Source of the DNA: Acaryochloris marina MBIC11017
GTDB lineage: Bacteria; Cyanobacteriota; Cyanobacteriia; Thermosynechococcales; Thermosynechococcaceae
DNA: 32,000 nt
Direction: 5' to 3'
NCBI RefSeq assembly: GCF_000018105.1
Contig: NC_009925.1
Span: forward strand, 2,190,001-2,222,000
The notes beneath the pieces were generated by a model that worked only from the letters and a program-made list of their open reading frames with translations, was not told where the DNA came from and did not search any database. Below are positions 15,177 through 21,469 of this stretch, in pieces (position 1 is the first letter of the stretch; every line of letters begins with the position of its first letter). A program made the position numbers and the translations under genes.

Positions 15177-16340
15177 ATGACAGAAAAATTGATTGAACAA
15201 GAAGCACCTAAACCGCGATTCTCTCTCCAAAGTCTATTTTTTGGTGCCCGTACGTCTAAAAGTTGGATGGCATCGCTGGATGGATTAAGGGGGATTGCGG
15301 TTCTCTTAGTGGTGGCAACCCATAGCAAGCGACTCCTGGGCCTACCTTGGGAGCAAATGTTCCTGGGGCATTATTTTCAGGCCGCAGGCACTATCTATGG
15401 CAGAACAGGGGTCTACATCTTTTTCATCTTAAGTAGCTTCCTGTTAACGAGCCACATGATGCGAGAGACGATTGAGCTTAAAAGCGCTAAAACCTGGATA
15501 AACTATGCTTTAAAACGATTTATACGCATATATCCGCTCTATCTTTTCGTTTTAGTCGTTTATTTAATTTTTCCGGGATTTAAGTTTGAACTGAAGGATC
15601 TAATATCCCATGTTCTACTACAAGAAGCGTTTAATCATTTTTGGACCATTGTCGTAGAGTTCAAATACTATTTGTTTTTCCCCTTCGTCGTGGGGATTAT
15701 TGTCCTGCTCTTCAAACGGGATTTTAAAGCGTCTACTCTCTTTTTACTCAGCGCCATTATCGTAACGGAGGGCGCTAATGTTGCGGTGGACTTCACGTCC
15801 AGATTATCCGTCCTCCCTCATATTCCGATTTTTCTGTTGGGCTCTTTGGCAGCCGTGGTCAATGCCAAGCTAACGGCGGTCTTTGACCCAGAAAATCCCA
15901 AACAGCGGCGATGGATGTCCATCCTGGCCAACACCTCCTTCGTGTTGATTGTGTTTAATTTTCCCAATCTAGTGAGTCGCCCCCTGTGGGATACCGTCTT
16001 TCAAGCCAACTATGTTCGTCTGTCCGCCAACCACGGGTTCTATACCTACCAAGCCATTCTGATCTGCGTTTTACTGGTGACCCATTTACATACGGATGGC
16101 TGGATCAAAAAAGTGTTAGAGAATGTGGCCCTGCGATTTGTAGGCATCGTTAGTTTTGGGGTATACCTCTGGCACATTGCAGTGCTCGGCTATTTGGAAT
16201 CTAAACTGAACGCCCCTGGCTATATCCAGTTTGCCAGTGTGTTCGTGGTGACCATCCTGTTGTCTGCGATCACGTATCTGTTATTTGAGAAACCTTTTAT
16301 GCGTATTAAACTTCGTCCCCAAATGATTAAGTCTTCCTAG
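15177..16340 (+). CDS. acyltransferase family 3 (AT3) O-acyltransferase, paralog of 12626-13714
   Basis: 'LDGLRGIAVLLVVATHS', and 'RIYPLYLF...Y...P.FK......SH.LLQE....FW.I.VEFKYYLF.P' aligns by eye with the first AT3. 'FGVYLWH' is present. The 3' end overlaps the convergent NACHT gene by 14 nt. Confidence 0.8.
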   Translation: MTEKLIEQEAPKPRFSLQSLFFGARTSKSWMASLDGLRGIAVLLVVATHSKRLLGLPWEQMFLGHYFQAAGTIYGRTGVYIFFILSSFLLTSHMMRETIELKSAKTWINYALKRFIRIYPLYLFVLVVYLIFPGFKFELKDLISHVLLQEAFNHFWTIVVEFKYYLFFPFVVGIIVLLFKRDFKASTLFLLSAIIVTEGANVAVDFTSRLSVLPHIPIFLLGSLAAVVNAKLTAVFDPENPKQRRWMSILANTSFVLIVFNFPNLVSRPLWDTVFQANYVRLSANHGFYTYQAILICVLLVTHLHTDGWIKKVLENVALRFVGIVSFGVYLWHIAVLGYLESKLNAPGYIQFASVFVVTILLSAITYLLFEKPFMRIKLRPQMIKSS

Positions 16341-19143
16341 GATCTTTAGGGTTCACCTTGATAGATGCACCCGCTTGCCAGAGGGCACGAAATTGCTCAA
16401 CGGATAATGCCTGGGACCAGTCCCACAGCAATTTGTAAACCGGCTGAGTCTGGGCCGACTGCTGAGATGTGATATATACCCCTTGAACCACAGTGAAAGC
16501 CTGTCGCCAGGTTGGGGACTCAGCATCCACCGTCATCAGACGGAGGTGTTTGCTGATCTGTTTGAGATGGTTTTTGCTCTGGGTTCTAGAGAAAATATCT
16601 AATAACACATCAATGGCCTCCCTATGGTGGGGCTGTATTGCCAAGAGCCGACCTGCATAGCGAATGCGAGTCTCCATCTTTCGGCTTTTCTGCAGTTTCT
16701 GTTCCAACACCTGAATAAGCTGTTGCGGCTTGAGGGGAGTTTTACGGGACCGACGATGTGAGTGCTTTACCGGTAGCGCTGAATGCTGAGGCGCCAATTT
16801 TTGCAAAGACTGTAGCGTTTGGTGACGGAGGGCAGGATCGTCAGTGAGTTGGAGGATATGTTCTAAAGTTTGGAGGGCCAAGGGTTGATCCGGTGCAATG
16901 ATACCCAGCCGATGGGCAGCCTTGCGACGCATCGCCAGAGAGTCATGGGACTGAATAATATCGTGTAAAGTTTGGAGGGCCTGGGGATGTCCCGGCTGAA
17001 TATCTGCAAGCGTCTTAGCCATCTCAATTTGCACATCGACGTTAGGCGCTTGGGTCAGCAGTTGTTCTAGGGTTGCGATCGCAACCCCATTCCCTGGATC
17101 ATAATTTTTGCCCAAGCTATGGGCCGCCAACCACTGCTCAAACGGATTCCGGGCATTTACCACAAACTGTTCAATGGCTTTGGTTACCAGGGTGCGATCG
17201 CTCTGGGACAACGCTTCCCCCGCAGGCTCAAGCCAAACAGTGGGTTTACCGTTCTGATGCTGAAATCGCCAATGGACCACCTCAGTGACTAACGCTTCTG
17301 AGCCAGCAAATTGGGGAAATTCTGCTAACCCCTTGGTCGCCAGCAGCTTCGCCTGGATATCGTAAAATCCACCACAGCCATCGGCAAAGTCTACCAGAGC
17401 TTGCAGAAACTGTACTTTATCCCCATCAGAAACGTCACTGCGCCCCAGCCATAGCAAGATCACTTCCTGCCATTGCCCACTAAAGATTGGGTGAAAGGTG
17501 GTTTCCGCTTGCTGATATTCAATAAACTGATGCAAATCTGCGATCGCTTGAGCTGCAAAATATTCCTGAAACGTGGCGTGATAAAAAGCGTAGACTTTAC
17601 CGCCTGTGGTGGGAGACCAGCCTGCGGGCTGTAGCCACCCTAACTGCAAGGCCAGAGTTAACTGATCAGGATCCAAATGTTGACTGATAAATATCACAGG
17701 TAGGCGAAACAATGGCGACGGTTGAGCCATTGCCTGCAACGCCAGGTGAGCTAGGGCTTGGTTGAGCTGCTGCCGCTGGGCCAAGCTGGTGGGGTGATGA
17801 TCCTGCTTCCAGTCGTAAAGGGCCTCGACAAACTGCCGATAGAGCATGGCCTTCGTTTCTGGCAATTGTTCTTGGGTGAGCTGCCAGGTTCGGCAGAGCA
17901 GAGCTAGGTGTAAGGGATTCTGAATCAGGGCTTTGAGTCGCCGCAGCTCGGGGCGATTAAGTTGGTGATACAGCGTATCGCCCGTTTGATCCTGAAACCA
18001 GTTTTGGATCACCGTTTGAACTTGATTTCCCCCTTGGCGATAGCTGAAGCTAAGGCTGCGATAGGGAGTGAAGGTTTCCAGAGCATTATGGCCCGCGTCC
18101 CAAAGTTGCGATCGCGAGGTCAGGATCACATGGGCCTCTCCCAGCCAGCCCTTGAGCTGCTTGGCTACAAAGGCCAACGCTTGGCTAGGCACCATCCCCA
18201 TTTCATCTACGGCATCCAGTAAAAGCCAGACCTTACCTGTAGCGAACTGCTGGGCAAAGGCTTGCTGCTGGCTTGGCGAAACGGTAAATACCTTCAGGGT
18301 TTGCTTGAGCCAAGTTTCTAGCAGGTATGTTTCTAGGGATTGACCCTCGAGATCGGCTAAAGAGATCCAAATCGGCAGCACCTGATCTTGGGCCAACAGT
18401 TTGAGAGCTAAGGTTTGCAACAGGGTCGTTTTGCCTGCCCCCGGTGGGCCAACGATGGCCACCCGCTGCACCGCTGATTGTGCCAGTAAAACCTCTAGAA
18501 ACTGATCAGGCTGATAGACCGTTGTCTCGGCGTCAGAATCACTGACTACATCCCCAGTTTGTTTAGCAACATCCGTTGGGTAGGCTACCAACCCCACCGG
18601 ACAATAGACATCTTTCAGGTCAAACGCCAATCCCGTATGGGCCGTCAGCGGATTAGTGGTTAGCCGAGTATCCAACGCCGCCTGACAGCAGGCTCTCCAG
18701 GGGCCTGCCTCTCTCTTCGGTTGGGATACCCCTCGATCCGGGCGCTGCTGATTCCAAACTTGGTCAAAGCTTTGCTGATTGGCTGCTTCTTCCCAGCGGT
18801 TATGGCACAGGGTCAAAGTGAAATGCCACTGATCCGACCCCCGCTGGCTGGTGCGGTGATCTTCCAGCATGCCCATAAAGGTTTGGAGATGTTTTAGCCC
18901 AGCTTTTACCTGCGCTAGGGTCAGCGGTGTCTCTAAATATTGGGTTAGGGCCACTAGATGCCGAGCCGTGGTCTGCACCACCAACCGCTGGTCCGTTTGC
19001 CAGTAGGTTTTGATCGTCCCCCGCAATCCTGCCAGGATCTTCTCGTCCTCAAGCTCTAGGGAATCATTGGCAAACTGCACCAAGCCCATCAGGAGGGTTT
19101 GGGTTCTGCGCCGGGTAATAGGGCCAAAACTTTGCTTGGGCAT
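16327..19143 (-). CDS. NACHT/STAND P-loop NTPase with C-terminal HEAT-type repeats and an uncharacterised N-terminal module
   Basis: Walker A 'VAIVGPPGAGKTTLLQTL', Walker B 'VWLLLDAVDEM' and the pre-NACHT 'LKDVYCPVGLV'. The C-terminus has repeated A..LG......A...L helical repeats (PBS-lyase HEAT-like). The ORF is 938 aa. Confidence 0.8.
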   Translation of the reverse strand: MPKQSFGPITRRRTQTLLMGLVQFANDSLELEDEKILAGLRGTIKTYWQTDQRLVVQTTARHLVALTQYLETPLTLAQVKAGLKHLQTFMGMLEDHRTSQRGSDQWHFTLTLCHNRWEEAANQQSFDQVWNQQRPDRGVSQPKREAGPWRACCQAALDTRLTTNPLTAHTGLAFDLKDVYCPVGLVAYPTDVAKQTGDVVSDSDAETTVYQPDQFLEVLLAQSAVQRVAIVGPPGAGKTTLLQTLALKLLAQDQVLPIWISLADLEGQSLETYLLETWLKQTLKVFTVSPSQQQAFAQQFATGKVWLLLDAVDEMGMVPSQALAFVAKQLKGWLGEAHVILTSRSQLWDAGHNALETFTPYRSLSFSYRQGGNQVQTVIQNWFQDQTGDTLYHQLNRPELRRLKALIQNPLHLALLCRTWQLTQEQLPETKAMLYRQFVEALYDWKQDHHPTSLAQRQQLNQALAHLALQAMAQPSPLFRLPVIFISQHLDPDQLTLALQLGWLQPAGWSPTTGGKVYAFYHATFQEYFAAQAIADLHQFIEYQQAETTFHPIFSGQWQEVILLWLGRSDVSDGDKVQFLQALVDFADGCGGFYDIQAKLLATKGLAEFPQFAGSEALVTEVVHWRFQHQNGKPTVWLEPAGEALSQSDRTLVTKAIEQFVVNARNPFEQWLAAHSLGKNYDPGNGVAIATLEQLLTQAPNVDVQIEMAKTLADIQPGHPQALQTLHDIIQSHDSLAMRRKAAHRLGIIAPDQPLALQTLEHILQLTDDPALRHQTLQSLQKLAPQHSALPVKHSHRRSRKTPLKPQQLIQVLEQKLQKSRKMETRIRYAGRLLAIQPHHREAIDVLLDIFSRTQSKNHLKQISKHLRLMTVDAESPTWRQAFTVVQGVYITSQQSAQTQPVYKLLWDWSQALSVEQFRALWQAGASIKVNPKDPRKT

Positions 19144-19317
19144 AGAGAACTTTCACGACAAAGTTAGGGGGTTCCCCTTAACTTAGATATCCCCCCTTAT
19201 TCTAGAACCCTAACCCTGTCCGCGTTTGACTCCAACTTTACGACATTGGAATCGGGGGAGAGACAGCCAGTAGATTAGGTTCAACGATAAGAAACGAGGT
19301 TACTTCAAGGCAAACAT

Positions 19318-19446
19318 GGACAGTTAGTTTAACGGTAGAACGTCTGTTATATGAATCTCCTGATTCACAACTTTATCCGTAAGGGTCGAAGAATTAGGGT
19401 TATCGCTAAGGAACAGAGGGTAGAGGTTCGAATCCTCTCCTGTCCA
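19318..19446 (+). ncRNA. tRNA-like RNA unit 1 (putative Y RNA / YrlA-like partner of Rsr)
   Basis: Acceptor GGACAGT/CCTGTCC (6 of 7 bp). D arm GTTT-AACGGTA-GAAC. Anticodon-position stem TCTGT(19343-47)/ACAGA(19413-17) enclosing a 65-nt insert. T arm AGAGG-TTCGAAT-CCTCT. No anticodon loop. Confidence 0.65.
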
Positions 19447-19458
19447 CACCACAGCCAC

Positions 19459-19580
19459 GGACGGATAGTTCAAAGGTAGAACGCCTTAACCCCCTTGTTC
19501 ATAACTTATCCGCAAGGGTCGAAGAATTAGGGTTATCGCCTATCATGCGGGAAATAGGGGTTCGAATCCCCTTCCGTCCA
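19459..19580 (+). ncRNA. tRNA-like RNA unit 2 (putative Y RNA / YrlA-like)
   Basis: Perfect 7-bp acceptor GGACGGA/TCCGTCC plus discriminator A. D arm GTTC-AAAGGTA-GAAC. T arm AGGGG-TTCGAAT-CCCCT. About 70 nt replaces the anticodon arm, including the conserved module 19506-19539. Confidence 0.65.
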
Positions 19581-19586
19581 TCCCCT

Positions 19587-19711
19587 GGAGTGGGTCGCTC
19601 AAACGGTAGAGCACCATTGATTGTCCGCAAGGGCCGCAGGAAATAAGGTTATCGCTTTTAACGACTTGTCCTTTATCCGTCGGGATGCGGGTTCGACTCC
19701 CGCTCCACTCC
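19587..19711 (+). ncRNA. tRNA-like RNA unit 3 (putative Y RNA / YrlA-like)
   Basis: Acceptor GAGTGGG/TCCACTC (one G-U pair). D arm GCTC-AAACGGTA-GAGC. T arm GCGGG-TTCGACT-CCCGC. The insert contains the conserved module 19621-19655 plus an extra ATCC-GTCG-GGAT hairpin. The unit ends about 55 nt before the rsr ATG. Confidence 0.65.
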
Positions 19712-19767
19712 CTTTCCCTATATGGGATTTTCAGCTTTTTTATTGCCCAGTCGGGCCGGAGATAATC

Positions 19768-21363
19768 ATGACTTACAAATTTTTTACCAACGCTCGTACC
19801 CCTCAGACCCATCCGATTCCTGGCCATGCAGCTGAAATGGTCCAAGGTCGATCTGGCGGCTACATGTTTGACCCAGGCATTTGGGGGATGCTGCGCCGAT
19901 GCCTACTGATCGGTACAGCTCAAAGCACCTACTATGCAGACAAGCATGAGTTAACCGATGACTTTATCCATGTCGTCCAGCAGTGTGTTTATGAGAATCC
20001 TCAGCGCACCGCTGAAGAGATTCTCTACGCTAGCGATGGCCGTTCCATCAACAACAGTGCGCCTATCTTGGCATTAGTGCTTTTATCCATGGGGGAAACC
20101 CAAATCGCCAAGCAGGCATTTGTAGAGCTATTCCCGCAAGTGGTGCGAACGGGTAGCCATTTCTACGAGTGGTTGAACTATACCAAGTCCTTACGGGGTT
20201 TCGGTAAAATCATTCGCCAGTGTGGAACCACATGGCTCTCTAATCCCGATGCCAAGGCCCTGGCCTATCAGTTGCTGAAGTACCAGCAGCGCCATGGCTT
20301 TACTCACCGGGATGCCTTACGGCTATTCCACGTCAAGCCCATCAGTGCCGATCACCAGGCCCTTTATCACTGGGTGACCCAGGGTTGGGAGACCTTACCT
20401 GAAAGCGCTCCTGACGCTTTAAAGCAAATTTGGTGGTACGAGCGGGTCAAGCGTCAGCCCGAGGCTACCCATGAGGCAATTATCCAAGGTCGCTTAACCC
20501 ACGAGATGATCGCCCCCATCGGTCAGATGGATCAGCGGGCTTGGCAGCTCCTCTTAGAGGGAATGCCTGTGGGAGCCTTATTGCGAAATCTAGGGTCTTT
20601 GACAGCACTAGGCGTTCTCGGAGCCCATAAGAGTAAGAACCTCAAGCGAGTGGCTGCGATGTTAACCAACAAGCAGCGCTTGCGCAAGGCTCGGATCCAT
20701 CCGATTGATGTGCTCAAAGCCTTGAAGACCTATGCGTCTGGGGGCCAGGTGGGGCGAAGTCGCAAGACTTGGACACCCATCGCCCGAGTCACCGATATTC
20801 TCGAAACGGCCCTTGAGCTATCTTTCGAGACAGTTGCCCCAACGGGCAAGGTGTTTATGCATGCCATCGATGTCTCAGGGTCGATGTCCTACTACACTGT
20901 GGGTTCGGTGGGCTTAAGCTGCTGCGAGATTGCCACGGCAATGGCCCTAGCAACGGCCAAAGCTGAGCGGAACTACGCGATTCGCGGGTTCTCAACCCAG
21001 TTCCGTGATTTGGGTATCACAGCCCGAGACAGCTTCCGCGATGCGCTCAAGAAGGCAACGGATAATAACTTCGGAGGCACTAATGCAGCGGTGGCCTACG
21101 AGTGGGCGATTCAGCATCACTTCTATGCCGATGTCTTCTGCTTCTGGACGGATTCTGAGTCCTATGCAGGGCGACAGCATCCGAGTCAGGCTTTAGCGGA
21201 GTATCGACGTCTAGTGAATCCAAAGGCTAAGGCGGTTTACGTGACTCTAGCCCCTTACCAGCTCTCCTTAGTGGATCCTAAGGATCCATTATCCTGGGAC
21301 TTCGGTGGTTTCGACCCCGCTGCCCCACGAGCCATCCAAATGATTGCTCAAGGAGAGATCTAA
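19768..21363 (+). CDS. rsr: Ro60-related protein Rsr (TROVE domain plus C-terminal vWA domain)
   Basis: 'PQTHPIPG....V.GRSGGYMFD...W..L.R.L.IG....TYY' and 'DGRS.NN.P.L.ALV' match the Ro/TROVE N-terminus. The C-terminal vWA has the MIDAS motif 'AIDVSGSMS'. GGAG lies 6 nt upstream of the ATG at 19768. The track start at 19621 runs through tRNA-like unit 3 and is rejected. Confidence 0.9.
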   Translation: MTYKFFTNARTPQTHPIPGHAAEMVQGRSGGYMFDPGIWGMLRRCLLIGTAQSTYYADKHELTDDFIHVVQQCVYENPQRTAEEILYASDGRSINNSAPILALVLLSMGETQIAKQAFVELFPQVVRTGSHFYEWLNYTKSLRGFGKIIRQCGTTWLSNPDAKALAYQLLKYQQRHGFTHRDALRLFHVKPISADHQALYHWVTQGWETLPESAPDALKQIWWYERVKRQPEATHEAIIQGRLTHEMIAPIGQMDQRAWQLLLEGMPVGALLRNLGSLTALGVLGAHKSKNLKRVAAMLTNKQRLRKARIHPIDVLKALKTYASGGQVGRSRKTWTPIARVTDILETALELSFETVAPTGKVFMHAIDVSGSMSYYTVGSVGLSCCEIATAMALATAKAERNYAIRGFSTQFRDLGITARDSFRDALKKATDNNFGGTNAAVAYEWAIQHHFYADVFCFWTDSESYAGRQHPSQALAEYRRLVNPKAKAVYVTLAPYQLSLVDPKDPLSWDFGGFDPAAPRAIQMIAQGEI

Positions 21364-21469
21364 CAAAGAGAGGTTACTATTCACTTTTTATCAAGGCTTA
21401 GTGACCTCTTTCGTATTTTGGATAATAAGATTCAAATGCACCCATCAAGTAAGTGGAAAAATCTAGAAA

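Follow-up and report, generated by a model that had tools for sequence, protein, structure and literature searches.

What kind of RNA is encoded by the three tandem tRNA-shaped units that lie directly upstream of rsr, the gene for the Ro60 orthologue, in the cyanobacterium Acaryochloris marina MBIC11017, and in what order is its chain arranged? We examined a stretch of 32,000 nt of this genome (NCBI RefSeq assembly GCF_000018105.1, contig NC_009925.1, positions 2,190,001 to 2,222,000 of the forward strand), referred to here as the window, to which all positions refer unless another locus is named. In the canonical tRNA-like Y RNA, YrlA, the acceptor stem-loop is closed and the 5' and 3' ends lie in the Ro-binding stem (PMC4201824; bioRxiv 10.1101/312249), a layout that an earlier note made from the letters of this DNA alone had described correctly. 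The anatomy, covariation, rsr linkage, and topology described below were observed computationally, and from them we consider it likely that the three units (U1, U2, and U3) are Y-RNA genes of the YrlA lineage that have the unpermuted topology of an ordinary tRNA.

Three tRNA-shaped units upstream of rsr

The gene at 19768 was identified as rsr from the TROVE and Ro60-vWA domains of its product (Table 1), which is 97% identical to a protein from an Acaryochloris metagenome-assembled genome. The earlier note had recognized a TROVE-vWA Rsr gene here, and the Pfam matches bear this out, although the ATG that it placed at 19769 in fact starts one base earlier. Direct reading, together with the covariance model R1 described below, confirmed the three tRNA-shaped units of 122-129 nt with the U8, D arms, and T arms that it had reported, the absence of an anticodon loop with 55-70 nt in its place in all three, and the end of the array on the rsr strand, for which a distance of about 55 nt had been given and which we measured as 56 nt from the discriminator base of U3 to the rsr ATG.

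Six of the seven acceptor pairs are formed in U1 (GGACAGU/CCUGUCC, position 7 being U.C) and all seven in both U2 (GGACGGA/UCCGUCC) and U3 (GAGUGGG/UCCACUC, with one G.U pair). All three units share U8, a D stem of 4 bp whose loop contains GG, and a T stem of 5 bp whose loop reads UUCGAAU or UUCGACU. A 5-bp stem resembling that of an anticodon arm is kept between the D and T arms in U1 only. The spacers are 12 nt between U1 and U2 and 7 nt between U2 and U3.

The Rfam tRNA model (RF00005, gathering score 29 bits) matched U1 over its full length at 45.9 bits with 64 nt inserted at the anticodon loop, whereas U2 and U3 fell below the cut-off in the same scan of the window. The earlier note had expected tRNAscan-SE to fail here or to call a pseudogene or an intron, and ARAGORN, which permits introns, called no tRNA in the window. 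R1 gave exactly three matches in the 32 kb, which are the three units, with E-values of 4e-25 (U2, 122.1 bits), 8e-19, and 4e-09; the scores of U1 and U3 were 93.3 and 49 bits, respectively.

Table 1. Features of the array, rsr, and the flanking sequence (window positions)
Feature	Positions	Strand	Description or basis
U1, type A	19318-19446	+	129 nt; direct reading
U1 acceptor stem	19318-24/19439-45	+	discriminator A19446
U1 D arm	19327-41	+	
U1 anticodon-like stem	19343-47/19413-17	+	5 bp, UCUGU/ACAGA
U1 module	19358-19405	+	columns 43-52/78-88 and 62-73 of alignment A1
U1 helix H strand	19358-66	+	UCCUGAUUC
U1 hairpin	19375-86	+	AUCC-GUAA-GGGU
U1 motif	19385-91	+	GUCGAAG
U1 second H strand	19391-99	+	GAAUUAGGG
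U1 conserved segment	19398-405	+	GGUUAUCG
U1 T arm	19422-38	+	
U2, type A	19459-19580	+	122 nt; direct reading; belongs to alignment A1
U2 acceptor stem	19459-65/19573-79	+	
U2 D arm	19468-82	+	
U2 module	19492-19550	+	
U2 H strand	19492-500	+	CCCUUGUUC
U2 hairpin	19508-19	+	AUCC-GCAA-GGGU
U2 motif	19518-24	+	GUCGAAG
U2 second H strand	19524-32	+	GAAUUAGGG
U2 conserved segment	19531-38	+	GGUUAUCG
U2 small hairpin	19536-50	+	UCGC..GCGG
U2 T arm	19556-72	+	
U3, type B	19588-19711	+	124 nt; direct reading; belongs to alignment A2
U3 acceptor stem	19588-94/19704-10	+	plus G-1:C73
U3 D arm	19597-612	+	
U3 module, swapped order	19623-19678	+	RNAalifold on A2
U3 hairpin	19623-34	+	GUCC-GCAA-GGGC
U3 motif	19633-39	+	GCCGCAG
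U3 H strand	19639-48	+	GGAAAUAAGG
U3 conserved segment	19647-54	+	GGUUAUCG
U3 small hairpin	19652-64	+	UCG..CGA
U3 H partner	19670-78	+	CCUUUAUCC
U3 T arm	19687-703	+	
Small hairpin, then U-rich stretch	19715-19727	+	UCCC-UAUAU-GGGA; direct reading; similar in L003, L016, L027, L073, L076
rsr leader element	19745-19761	+	hairpin GCCC-AGUC-GGGC, then CGGAG (Shine-Dalgarno 19758-61)
rsr (Ro60 orthologue), 531 aa	19768-21363	+	Pfam vWA_Ro60 8e-36, TROVE 7e-18
Terminator-like hairpin after rsr stop	21369-21419	+	AGAGGU..ACCUCU, then U-rich UUUCGUAUUUU; direct reading
Palindrome upstream of array	19160-19184	.	AAAGTTAGGGGG-TT-CCCCTTAACTT; direct reading
Candidate promoter	19245-19276	+	G-rich box ATTGGAATCGGGGGAG (19245-19260), 10 nt, -10-like TAGATT (19271-19276); predicted start near 19283

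Conservation and covariation of the units in cyanobacteria

With the Rsr protein as the query, we collected 80 cyanobacterial rsr loci (L001-L080), which together with the window make 81 sources. A scan for the series D arm, GTTATCG, and T arm near rsr found it upstream of the gene in almost all of the 80 loci, and 161 units with complementary ends were recovered, 151 of them distinct. The units fall into two types, A and B, according to the order of the parts between the D and T arms; 31 diverse type-A units were aligned (alignment A1) and used to build R1, and the type-B units were aligned separately (alignment A2).

RNAalifold on A1 returned the acceptor, D, and T stems plus three helices within the insert. 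In this structure, 96% of the cells were paired, and two-sided changes occurred in 20 of the 32 pairs. When A1 was compared with shuffled alignments, its values for four of five measures (the covariation score, the share of paired cells in percent, and the two counts of two-sided changes) were never reached by the shuffles, whereas the fifth, the count of further pair types, was not above them; shifting the register by one column lowered the pairing to about 50%. The tertiary 15:48 (Levitt) pair was G:C in 20 units and A:U in 10, with one exception, and it is this covariation that Chen et al. (PMC4201824) used as a signature of YrlA. The acceptor, D, and T stems of A2 likewise showed compensatory changes, and the anticodon-like stem of U1 has two double substitutions in the nearest relative (UCUGU/ACAGA to CCUGC/GCAGG, L001). 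Across the 81 sources, R1 gave 345 matches, and all 300 of the matches listed were full length and on the rsr strand. The units proposed in the earlier note are thus kept at aligned orthologous rsr loci, and the stems drawn for them covary in both alignments.

The base at -1 and the discriminator base formed a Watson-Crick pair in 130 of the 151 distinct units of L001-L080 and the window, mostly G-1:C73, as in U3 (19587/19711), and positions 1 and 72 were U and A in 116. The -1:73 pairing makes an acceptor stem of 8 bp, and an 8-bp stem of this kind is a mark of bacterial tRNA-His. CCA is encoded directly after the acceptor in about 70 of the 151 units, in one register or the other.

A conserved module in place of the anticodon arm

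Among the relatives, the best-conserved run of the insert lies on one strand and consists of a 4-bp hairpin, mostly capped by GNRA-type tetraloops, followed by CGA(A/C)G, GAAU(G/U)AGGG, and UUAUCG. The capped hairpin covaries, with a closing pair of U-A in 18, C-G in 10, and U-G in 3 units of A1. GAAUGAGGG pairs with UCCUUGUUC, and the resulting helix of 9 bp, which has a wobble, a mismatch, or a bulge at its center, is almost invariant in type A. In type A, which comprises U1, U2, and most units of the Nostocales, the UCCUUGUUC strand lies 5' of the hairpin; in type B, which comprises U3 and the rsr-proximal unit of the other non-Nostocales, the hairpin comes first and is followed by a small AUCG/CGAU hairpin and then a CCUUNAUUC strand. 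The type-B helix (A2 columns 55-63/89-97) has compensatory changes, with A-U in 7 and G-C in 7 units at one pair and A-U in 8 and U-A in 5 at another. Thus, a single module is attached to the tRNA body in either of two orientations.

A GNCGAAN0-1G motif close to the 5' end of YrlA has been related to GGUCCGA, which Xenopus Ro60 contacts (Chen 2014, PMC4201824). In the units, the 3' bases of the hairpin together with CGAAG make up this motif, and the strand that bears it runs on into the T arm; it reads GUCGAAG in U1 and U2 and GCCGAAG or GACGAAUG in most relatives. We take the module to be the probable Rsr-binding site because it is conserved, is akin to the published motif, and is strictly linked to rsr; within it, the hairpin, CGAAG, and GAAUGAGGGUUAUCG define a compact candidate element.

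Linkage to rsr and distribution of the arrays

The tRNA-shaped design occurred upstream of rsr in nearly all of the 81 loci and always on the rsr strand, in one to eight or more units per locus. When metagenomes were scanned with the 19-nt module motif alone, with no selection for rsr, 53 loci were found, 46 of which contain R1 units; the other seven, which have no unit, are chance matches. On the 46 contigs with units, rsr lay directly downstream on the same strand in 40 and was present as a remnant in one, and the contig edge was too near in the remaining five. Picosynechococcus PCC 7002 carries the same array on its plasmid pAQ7. Its units lie at 2542-2665, 2690-2796, and 2822-2944 of L081, and the array corresponds to about 163022-163424 on the minus strand of NC_010474.1. 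Furthermore, the Nostocales have a third form of the unit just downstream of rsr (e.g., L008, 4681-4788; about 40 loci), which retains the acceptor stem, T arm, and full module, lacks the D arm, and ends in a U run; the R1 search found no such form in the window. The metagenomic locus L139 has four intact units (115-751) and an intact leader hairpin of the kind described below, followed by a broken rsr (787-880) in which about 30 codons are succeeded by a stop codon and then by unrelated AT-rich sequence.

The units could also be mainly cis-acting, as tRNA-like processing signals in a long rsr leader that set the 5' end and the stability of the rsr mRNA, with the released pieces as by-products. 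The interval between the last unit and the ATG is indeed fixed (37 nt in the Nostocales and 56 nt in the window), a leader element that mimics part of the module begins right after it, and the array and rsr share a strand with no strong terminator between them. However, a cis-acting signal fits poorly with a copy number of one to eight or more, with Nostocales units that stand hundreds of nucleotides from rsr behind repeat-filled spacers or even downstream of the gene, and with four intact units beside the broken rsr of L139, and processing alone would leave the strong constraint on the 50-nt module unexplained. We therefore regard a mainly cis-acting role as unlikely.

The motif was also searched for in viral contigs, where it gave 15 matches, none with a unit. 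As these matches have no tRNA-like unit and their number is within chance expectation, they are probably chance occurrences and were rejected as Y RNAs. Seven of the 15 belong to a single family (IMG/VR contigs of 1.5-4 kb: L086, L087, L089, L090, L094, L095, and L097), in which a perfect hairpin follows GGUCGAAGAAUGAGGGGUUAUCG some 100 nt from the start of an ORF of 605 aa; this segment has no Rfam match.

Topology of the units

The array could also be read as canonical, circularly permuted YrlA RNAs. Each RNA would then run from CGAAG through the T arm, across the spacer with its flanking acceptor strands as a closed stem-loop, and into the D arm of the next unit, to end after CCUUGUUC, so that the window would hold two YrlAs and two orphan halves. 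The Rfam YrlA model (RF02553) aligned in exactly this way, with a best score in the window of 27.3 bits for the full model across U1/U2 and a partial match of 18.2 bits across U2/U3. Tandem arrangement is also known for the canonical form: three permuted YrlA-type RNAs lie in tandem downstream of rsr in Rhizobium etli CIAT 652 plasmid pA (L082, 3986-4330), where the ends of the RNAs are self-complementary in the permuted sense (AUGGCGA...UCGCCAU) and Rfam calls only the middle one at its gathering score. Moreover, Chen et al. (2014, PMC4201824) listed some cyanobacterial YrlAs in the permuted reading, with "longer acceptor stems." The window scores are, however, far under the gathering score of 69 bits, which was reached neither in the window nor in L081, L036, L002, or L020, whereas the R. 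etli plasmid locus, which is named in Chen 2014 and served as the control, scored 92.2 bits; the mycobacteriophage Ro locus gave only a partial match (28.8 bits), so it was not used for this purpose.

The question can be put directly by asking which acceptor strands pair, for which D and T arms were detected without any acceptor criterion before strand pairing was scored. The two strands of the same unit paired at all seven positions in 136 of 149 cases (91%), whereas strands of neighboring units paired perfectly in only 30 of 140, which is no better than the 33% of random strand pairs; the random value is this high because acceptor sequences resemble each other. Distances within units were constant, while the spacers between units ranged from about 7 to 299 nt (median, 55 nt). 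In the window array, enforcing own-unit stems gave a fold energy of -141.7 kcal/mol and enforcing neighbor stems -118.6 kcal/mol, compared with -144.1 kcal/mol when unconstrained; own-unit stems are thus favored by about 23 kcal/mol.

Loci with a single unit bear on the same point. Within 3 kb on either side of rsr, five loci (L080, L010, L011, L026, and L014) have a single complete unit, which is unreadable as a permuted RNA, and in L080 the Rfam YrlA model had no match even at E ≤ 1. Since arrays open with an acceptor strand and D arm and close with a T arm and acceptor strand, each array, if read as permuted, would have two orphan halves left over. In addition, the hairpin that would separate consecutive permuted RNAs is conserved and covarying, and RNase P would cut the precursor at each 7-bp acceptor stem anyway. 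A permuted, canonical YrlA is thus a quite improbable reading of these loci. Because own-unit pairing is kept and single-unit loci exist, the RNA ends are placed at the acceptor stem and not in the Ro-binding stem; every sequence-level test that was run agrees with the ordinary tRNA topology, with the module at the anticodon position, that the earlier note had put forward.

Two observations concern the sequence between and beside the units. The spacers in the Nostocales consist of heptamer repeats (TAACTCC/GGAGTTA) that form long perfect hairpins (L080, 2884-2974; L055, -300 to -165), to which Rfam models of miRNA precursors match spuriously. In L010, L011, and L026, a lone degenerate type-B T arm with its 3' acceptor strand (GCGGGUGCAACUCCCGCUCUACUCC) lies about -75 to -45 from rsr, between the type-A unit and the gene, and is apparently the remnant of a lost unit.

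Relationship to YrlA and other known RNAs

The units share with YrlA a place beside rsr on the same strand, often in multiple copies, the D and T arms and an acceptor-like stem, the covarying 15:48 pair, and, on the 5' side of the T arm, a motif of the GNCGAA type; the D stem GCUC/GAGC and T stem GCGGG/CCCGC of U3 are identical to the Rfam YrlA consensus stems. They differ in that YrlA is circularly permuted, with the T arm before the D arm, an acceptor stem closed by a loop, and ends that form the Ro-binding stem, whereas the units run acceptor-D-module-T-acceptor, with an open acceptor stem and a module closed by a tetraloop hairpin. GGUUAUCG and the two orientations of the module are found in the units and are not described for YrlA. 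The units thus fail two of the defining features of YrlA, namely the permuted order with its closed acceptor stem and the Rfam score. Nevertheless, their genomic place, tRNA-like elbow, 15:48 covariation, and GNCGAA-type motif suggest that they are probably related to it.

The closest functional precedent is the YrlA of Mycobacterium smegmatis, the only YrlA with a 7-bp acceptor stem, which is cut by RNase P and CCA-tailed in vivo (PMC4201824). There, a permuted single chain becomes two pieces (65 and 82 nt), whereas a single uninterrupted chain would give a cyanobacterial unit this open-acceptor shape. Yrn1 of Deinococcus radiodurans, which binds Rsr, also has D-like and T arms in tRNA order from the 5' end; however, Ro binding involves the helix of its terminal stem, and its D and T arms are separated by a short anticodon-like arm, whereas the terminal stem of the units is a true acceptor and their Ro-type module occupies the anticodon position. 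A dimeric-tRNA origin has been proposed for YrlA, in which it derives from the T half of one tRNA, the D half of the tRNA that follows, and the spacer between them (Sim and Wolin 2018, quoted in bioRxiv 10.1101/312249). The T half, spacer, and D half of tandem units do align weakly to the YrlA model. The proposal is an evolutionary one that, in the account given there, names no living example, and the units already carry a Ro-type motif in their anticodon arm. The arrays look like the starting arrangement of that model.

Cyanobacteria carry group I introns in tRNA anticodon loops. The introns of tRNA-Leu(UAA) and tRNA-fMet resemble the units in that extra sequence is inserted at the anticodon loop; they are, however, over 200 nt long and self-splicing and leave a normal anticodon arm, whereas the 55-70 nt of the units replace the arm and are themselves the conserved functional part. 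Although the Rfam tRNA model matches U1 and several other cyanobacterial units end to end with a single insertion (about 60 nt) at the anticodon loop, we reject both intron-bearing working tRNA genes and decaying tRNA pseudogenes as highly improbable, because an anticodon stem and loop are altogether missing from most units, the insert falls far short of group I intron length and matches no intron family at E ≤ 10, ARAGORN calls nothing even with introns allowed, the insert is the most conserved part and always accompanies rsr, and the compensatory changes across more than 80 genomes exclude decay.

Several points weigh against reading the units as unpermuted Y RNAs. Neighboring acceptor strands can form six of seven pairs at each junction of the window array, and a long precursor could thus pass through a permuted fold for a time. 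In type A, the module's large helix is nearly invariant, and covariation therefore cannot tell pairing within a unit from pairing with a neighbor; within-unit pairing was chosen for this helix on the evidence of the acceptor stems, together with that of the single-unit loci and of the capped hairpin. The motif of U3 is GCCGCAG instead of GNCGAAG, a difference of one base. When the insert was compared with the joined ends of R. etli YrlA, the permuted order aligned better than the native order (median z, 1.1 versus -0.4), a value too weak to claim sequence homology between the module and canonical YrlA. Minimum-free-energy (MFE) folds of single units were no better than those of shuffled sequences (z, -0.4 to -1.7), and for single units and permuted spans together MFE folding was uninformative (z, -0.1 to -1.7). 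The permuted listing of cyanobacterial YrlAs in Chen et al. also stands on this side, although what is called there a "much longer acceptor stem" may be the T half, spacer, and D half of adjacent units read together. Finally, a literature search found no expression, end-mapping, or binding data for the cyanobacterial units. The full-text search likewise found no description of unpermuted cyanobacterial Y RNAs, although subscription papers were outside it and an earlier description is possible.

The rsr leader and flanking elements

In almost all of the 81 loci, a hairpin of the form GCC(Y)-loop-(R)GGC followed by YG(G/A)RAG, which is the Shine-Dalgarno sequence, lies 10-25 nt ahead of the ATG of rsr, at about -30 to -8, and it is present also at loci without a nearby unit. 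The hairpin is 96% paired, with a C-G/U-A exchange at the closing pair; for an outer helix the figure is 71%, and some two-sided changes occur there. In the Nostocales, pairing of the flanks UUUCAU and AUGAAA can close this element, much as the type-A module is closed by its large helix. Because this hairpin and motif resemble the hairpin and CGAAG of the units, the leader suggests the hypothesis that Rsr may bind its own leader, in a form of autoregulation by mimicry.

The small hairpin between the array and the leader (19715-19727) is possibly a weak terminator or attenuator, although the terminator scan did not call it, and a scan of the window for consensus sigma-70 promoters and terminators found nothing. 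Upstream of the array, palindromes related to that in Table 1 occur in the same relative place in L003, L016, L081, L002, L020, L010, and L011, and the form AAAGTTAGGGGG..CCCCYTAACTT is common to the window, PCC 7002, and eight other non-Nostocales loci. A second C-run also lies within 19160-19276. The 16-mer ATTGGAATCGGGGGAG is identical in L001 and Picosynechococcus PCC 7002, and the geometry of xxxGGG, 14-15 nt, and TAnnnT recurs in nine distant non-Nostocales loci, whereas the Nostocales do not keep it. In PCC 7002, phnC lies upstream of the array on the same strand, which assigns these upstream boxes to the array and not to the divergent gene of the window. From this conservation, the palindrome is a possible operator, and the G-rich box with TAGATT is likely to be the promoter of the array, of an unusual kind.

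The divergent neighbor (16327-19143, minus strand) encodes a 938-aa EAD4-NACHT-HEAT STAND NTPase of the conflict-system type. It is not conserved beside rsr at other loci, and PCC 7002 has phn genes in its place.

Proposed function and implications

For transcription, processing, Rsr binding, and feedback, we infer the following course. A promoter located about 35 nt upstream of U1 would drive transcription of the array, probably together with rsr. RNase P would cut 5' of each acceptor stem, RNase Z or exonucleases would trim the 3' side, and CCA would perhaps be added, yielding RNAs of about 122-129 nt. Each RNA would fold into the L-shape of a tRNA, with an open acceptor stem of 7-8 bp, the D and T arms, and the 15:48 pair; in place of the anticodon arm it would have a closed module, about 50 nt long and made up of the bulged helix UCCUUGUUC/GAAUGAGGG, the tetraloop hairpin with CGAAG, and GGUUAUCG. 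Rsr may sit on the module, so that the elbow and acceptor end stay accessible to an effector or to tRNA enzymes, as has been suggested for YrlA. Since the leader carries a copy of the hairpin and motif over the ribosome-binding site, translation of rsr may come under repression by free Rsr, which the Y RNAs may in turn titrate. We offer tentatively, as a possibility that falls somewhat short of an even chance, the broader idea that cyanobacterial Y RNAs are tRNA-shaped RNAs processed by RNase P and RNase Z and tailed with CCA, an unpermuted and possibly ancestral counterpart of YrlA, and that Rsr regulates itself through its leader with the Y RNAs as competitors.

In these arrays, the tRNA shape appears to be kept while the chain order of YrlA is not: the same parts stand in ordinary tRNA order, in tandem, with the module in either orientation. 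The layout predicts that the RNAs are substrates of RNase P, RNase Z, and the CCA-adding enzyme and possibly of an aminoacyl-tRNA synthetase, and the copying of part of the module across the ribosome-binding site of rsr suggests a feedback loop. Genetic testing is feasible, as Picosynechococcus PCC 7002 has the array on a plasmid. For the origin of YrlA-type RNAs from tRNA, the cyanobacterial arrays provide a concrete test case of the dimeric-tRNA model; should the broader idea above be true, the tandem tRNA arrangement that has been proposed as the origin of the permuted YrlA would have a living example in them.

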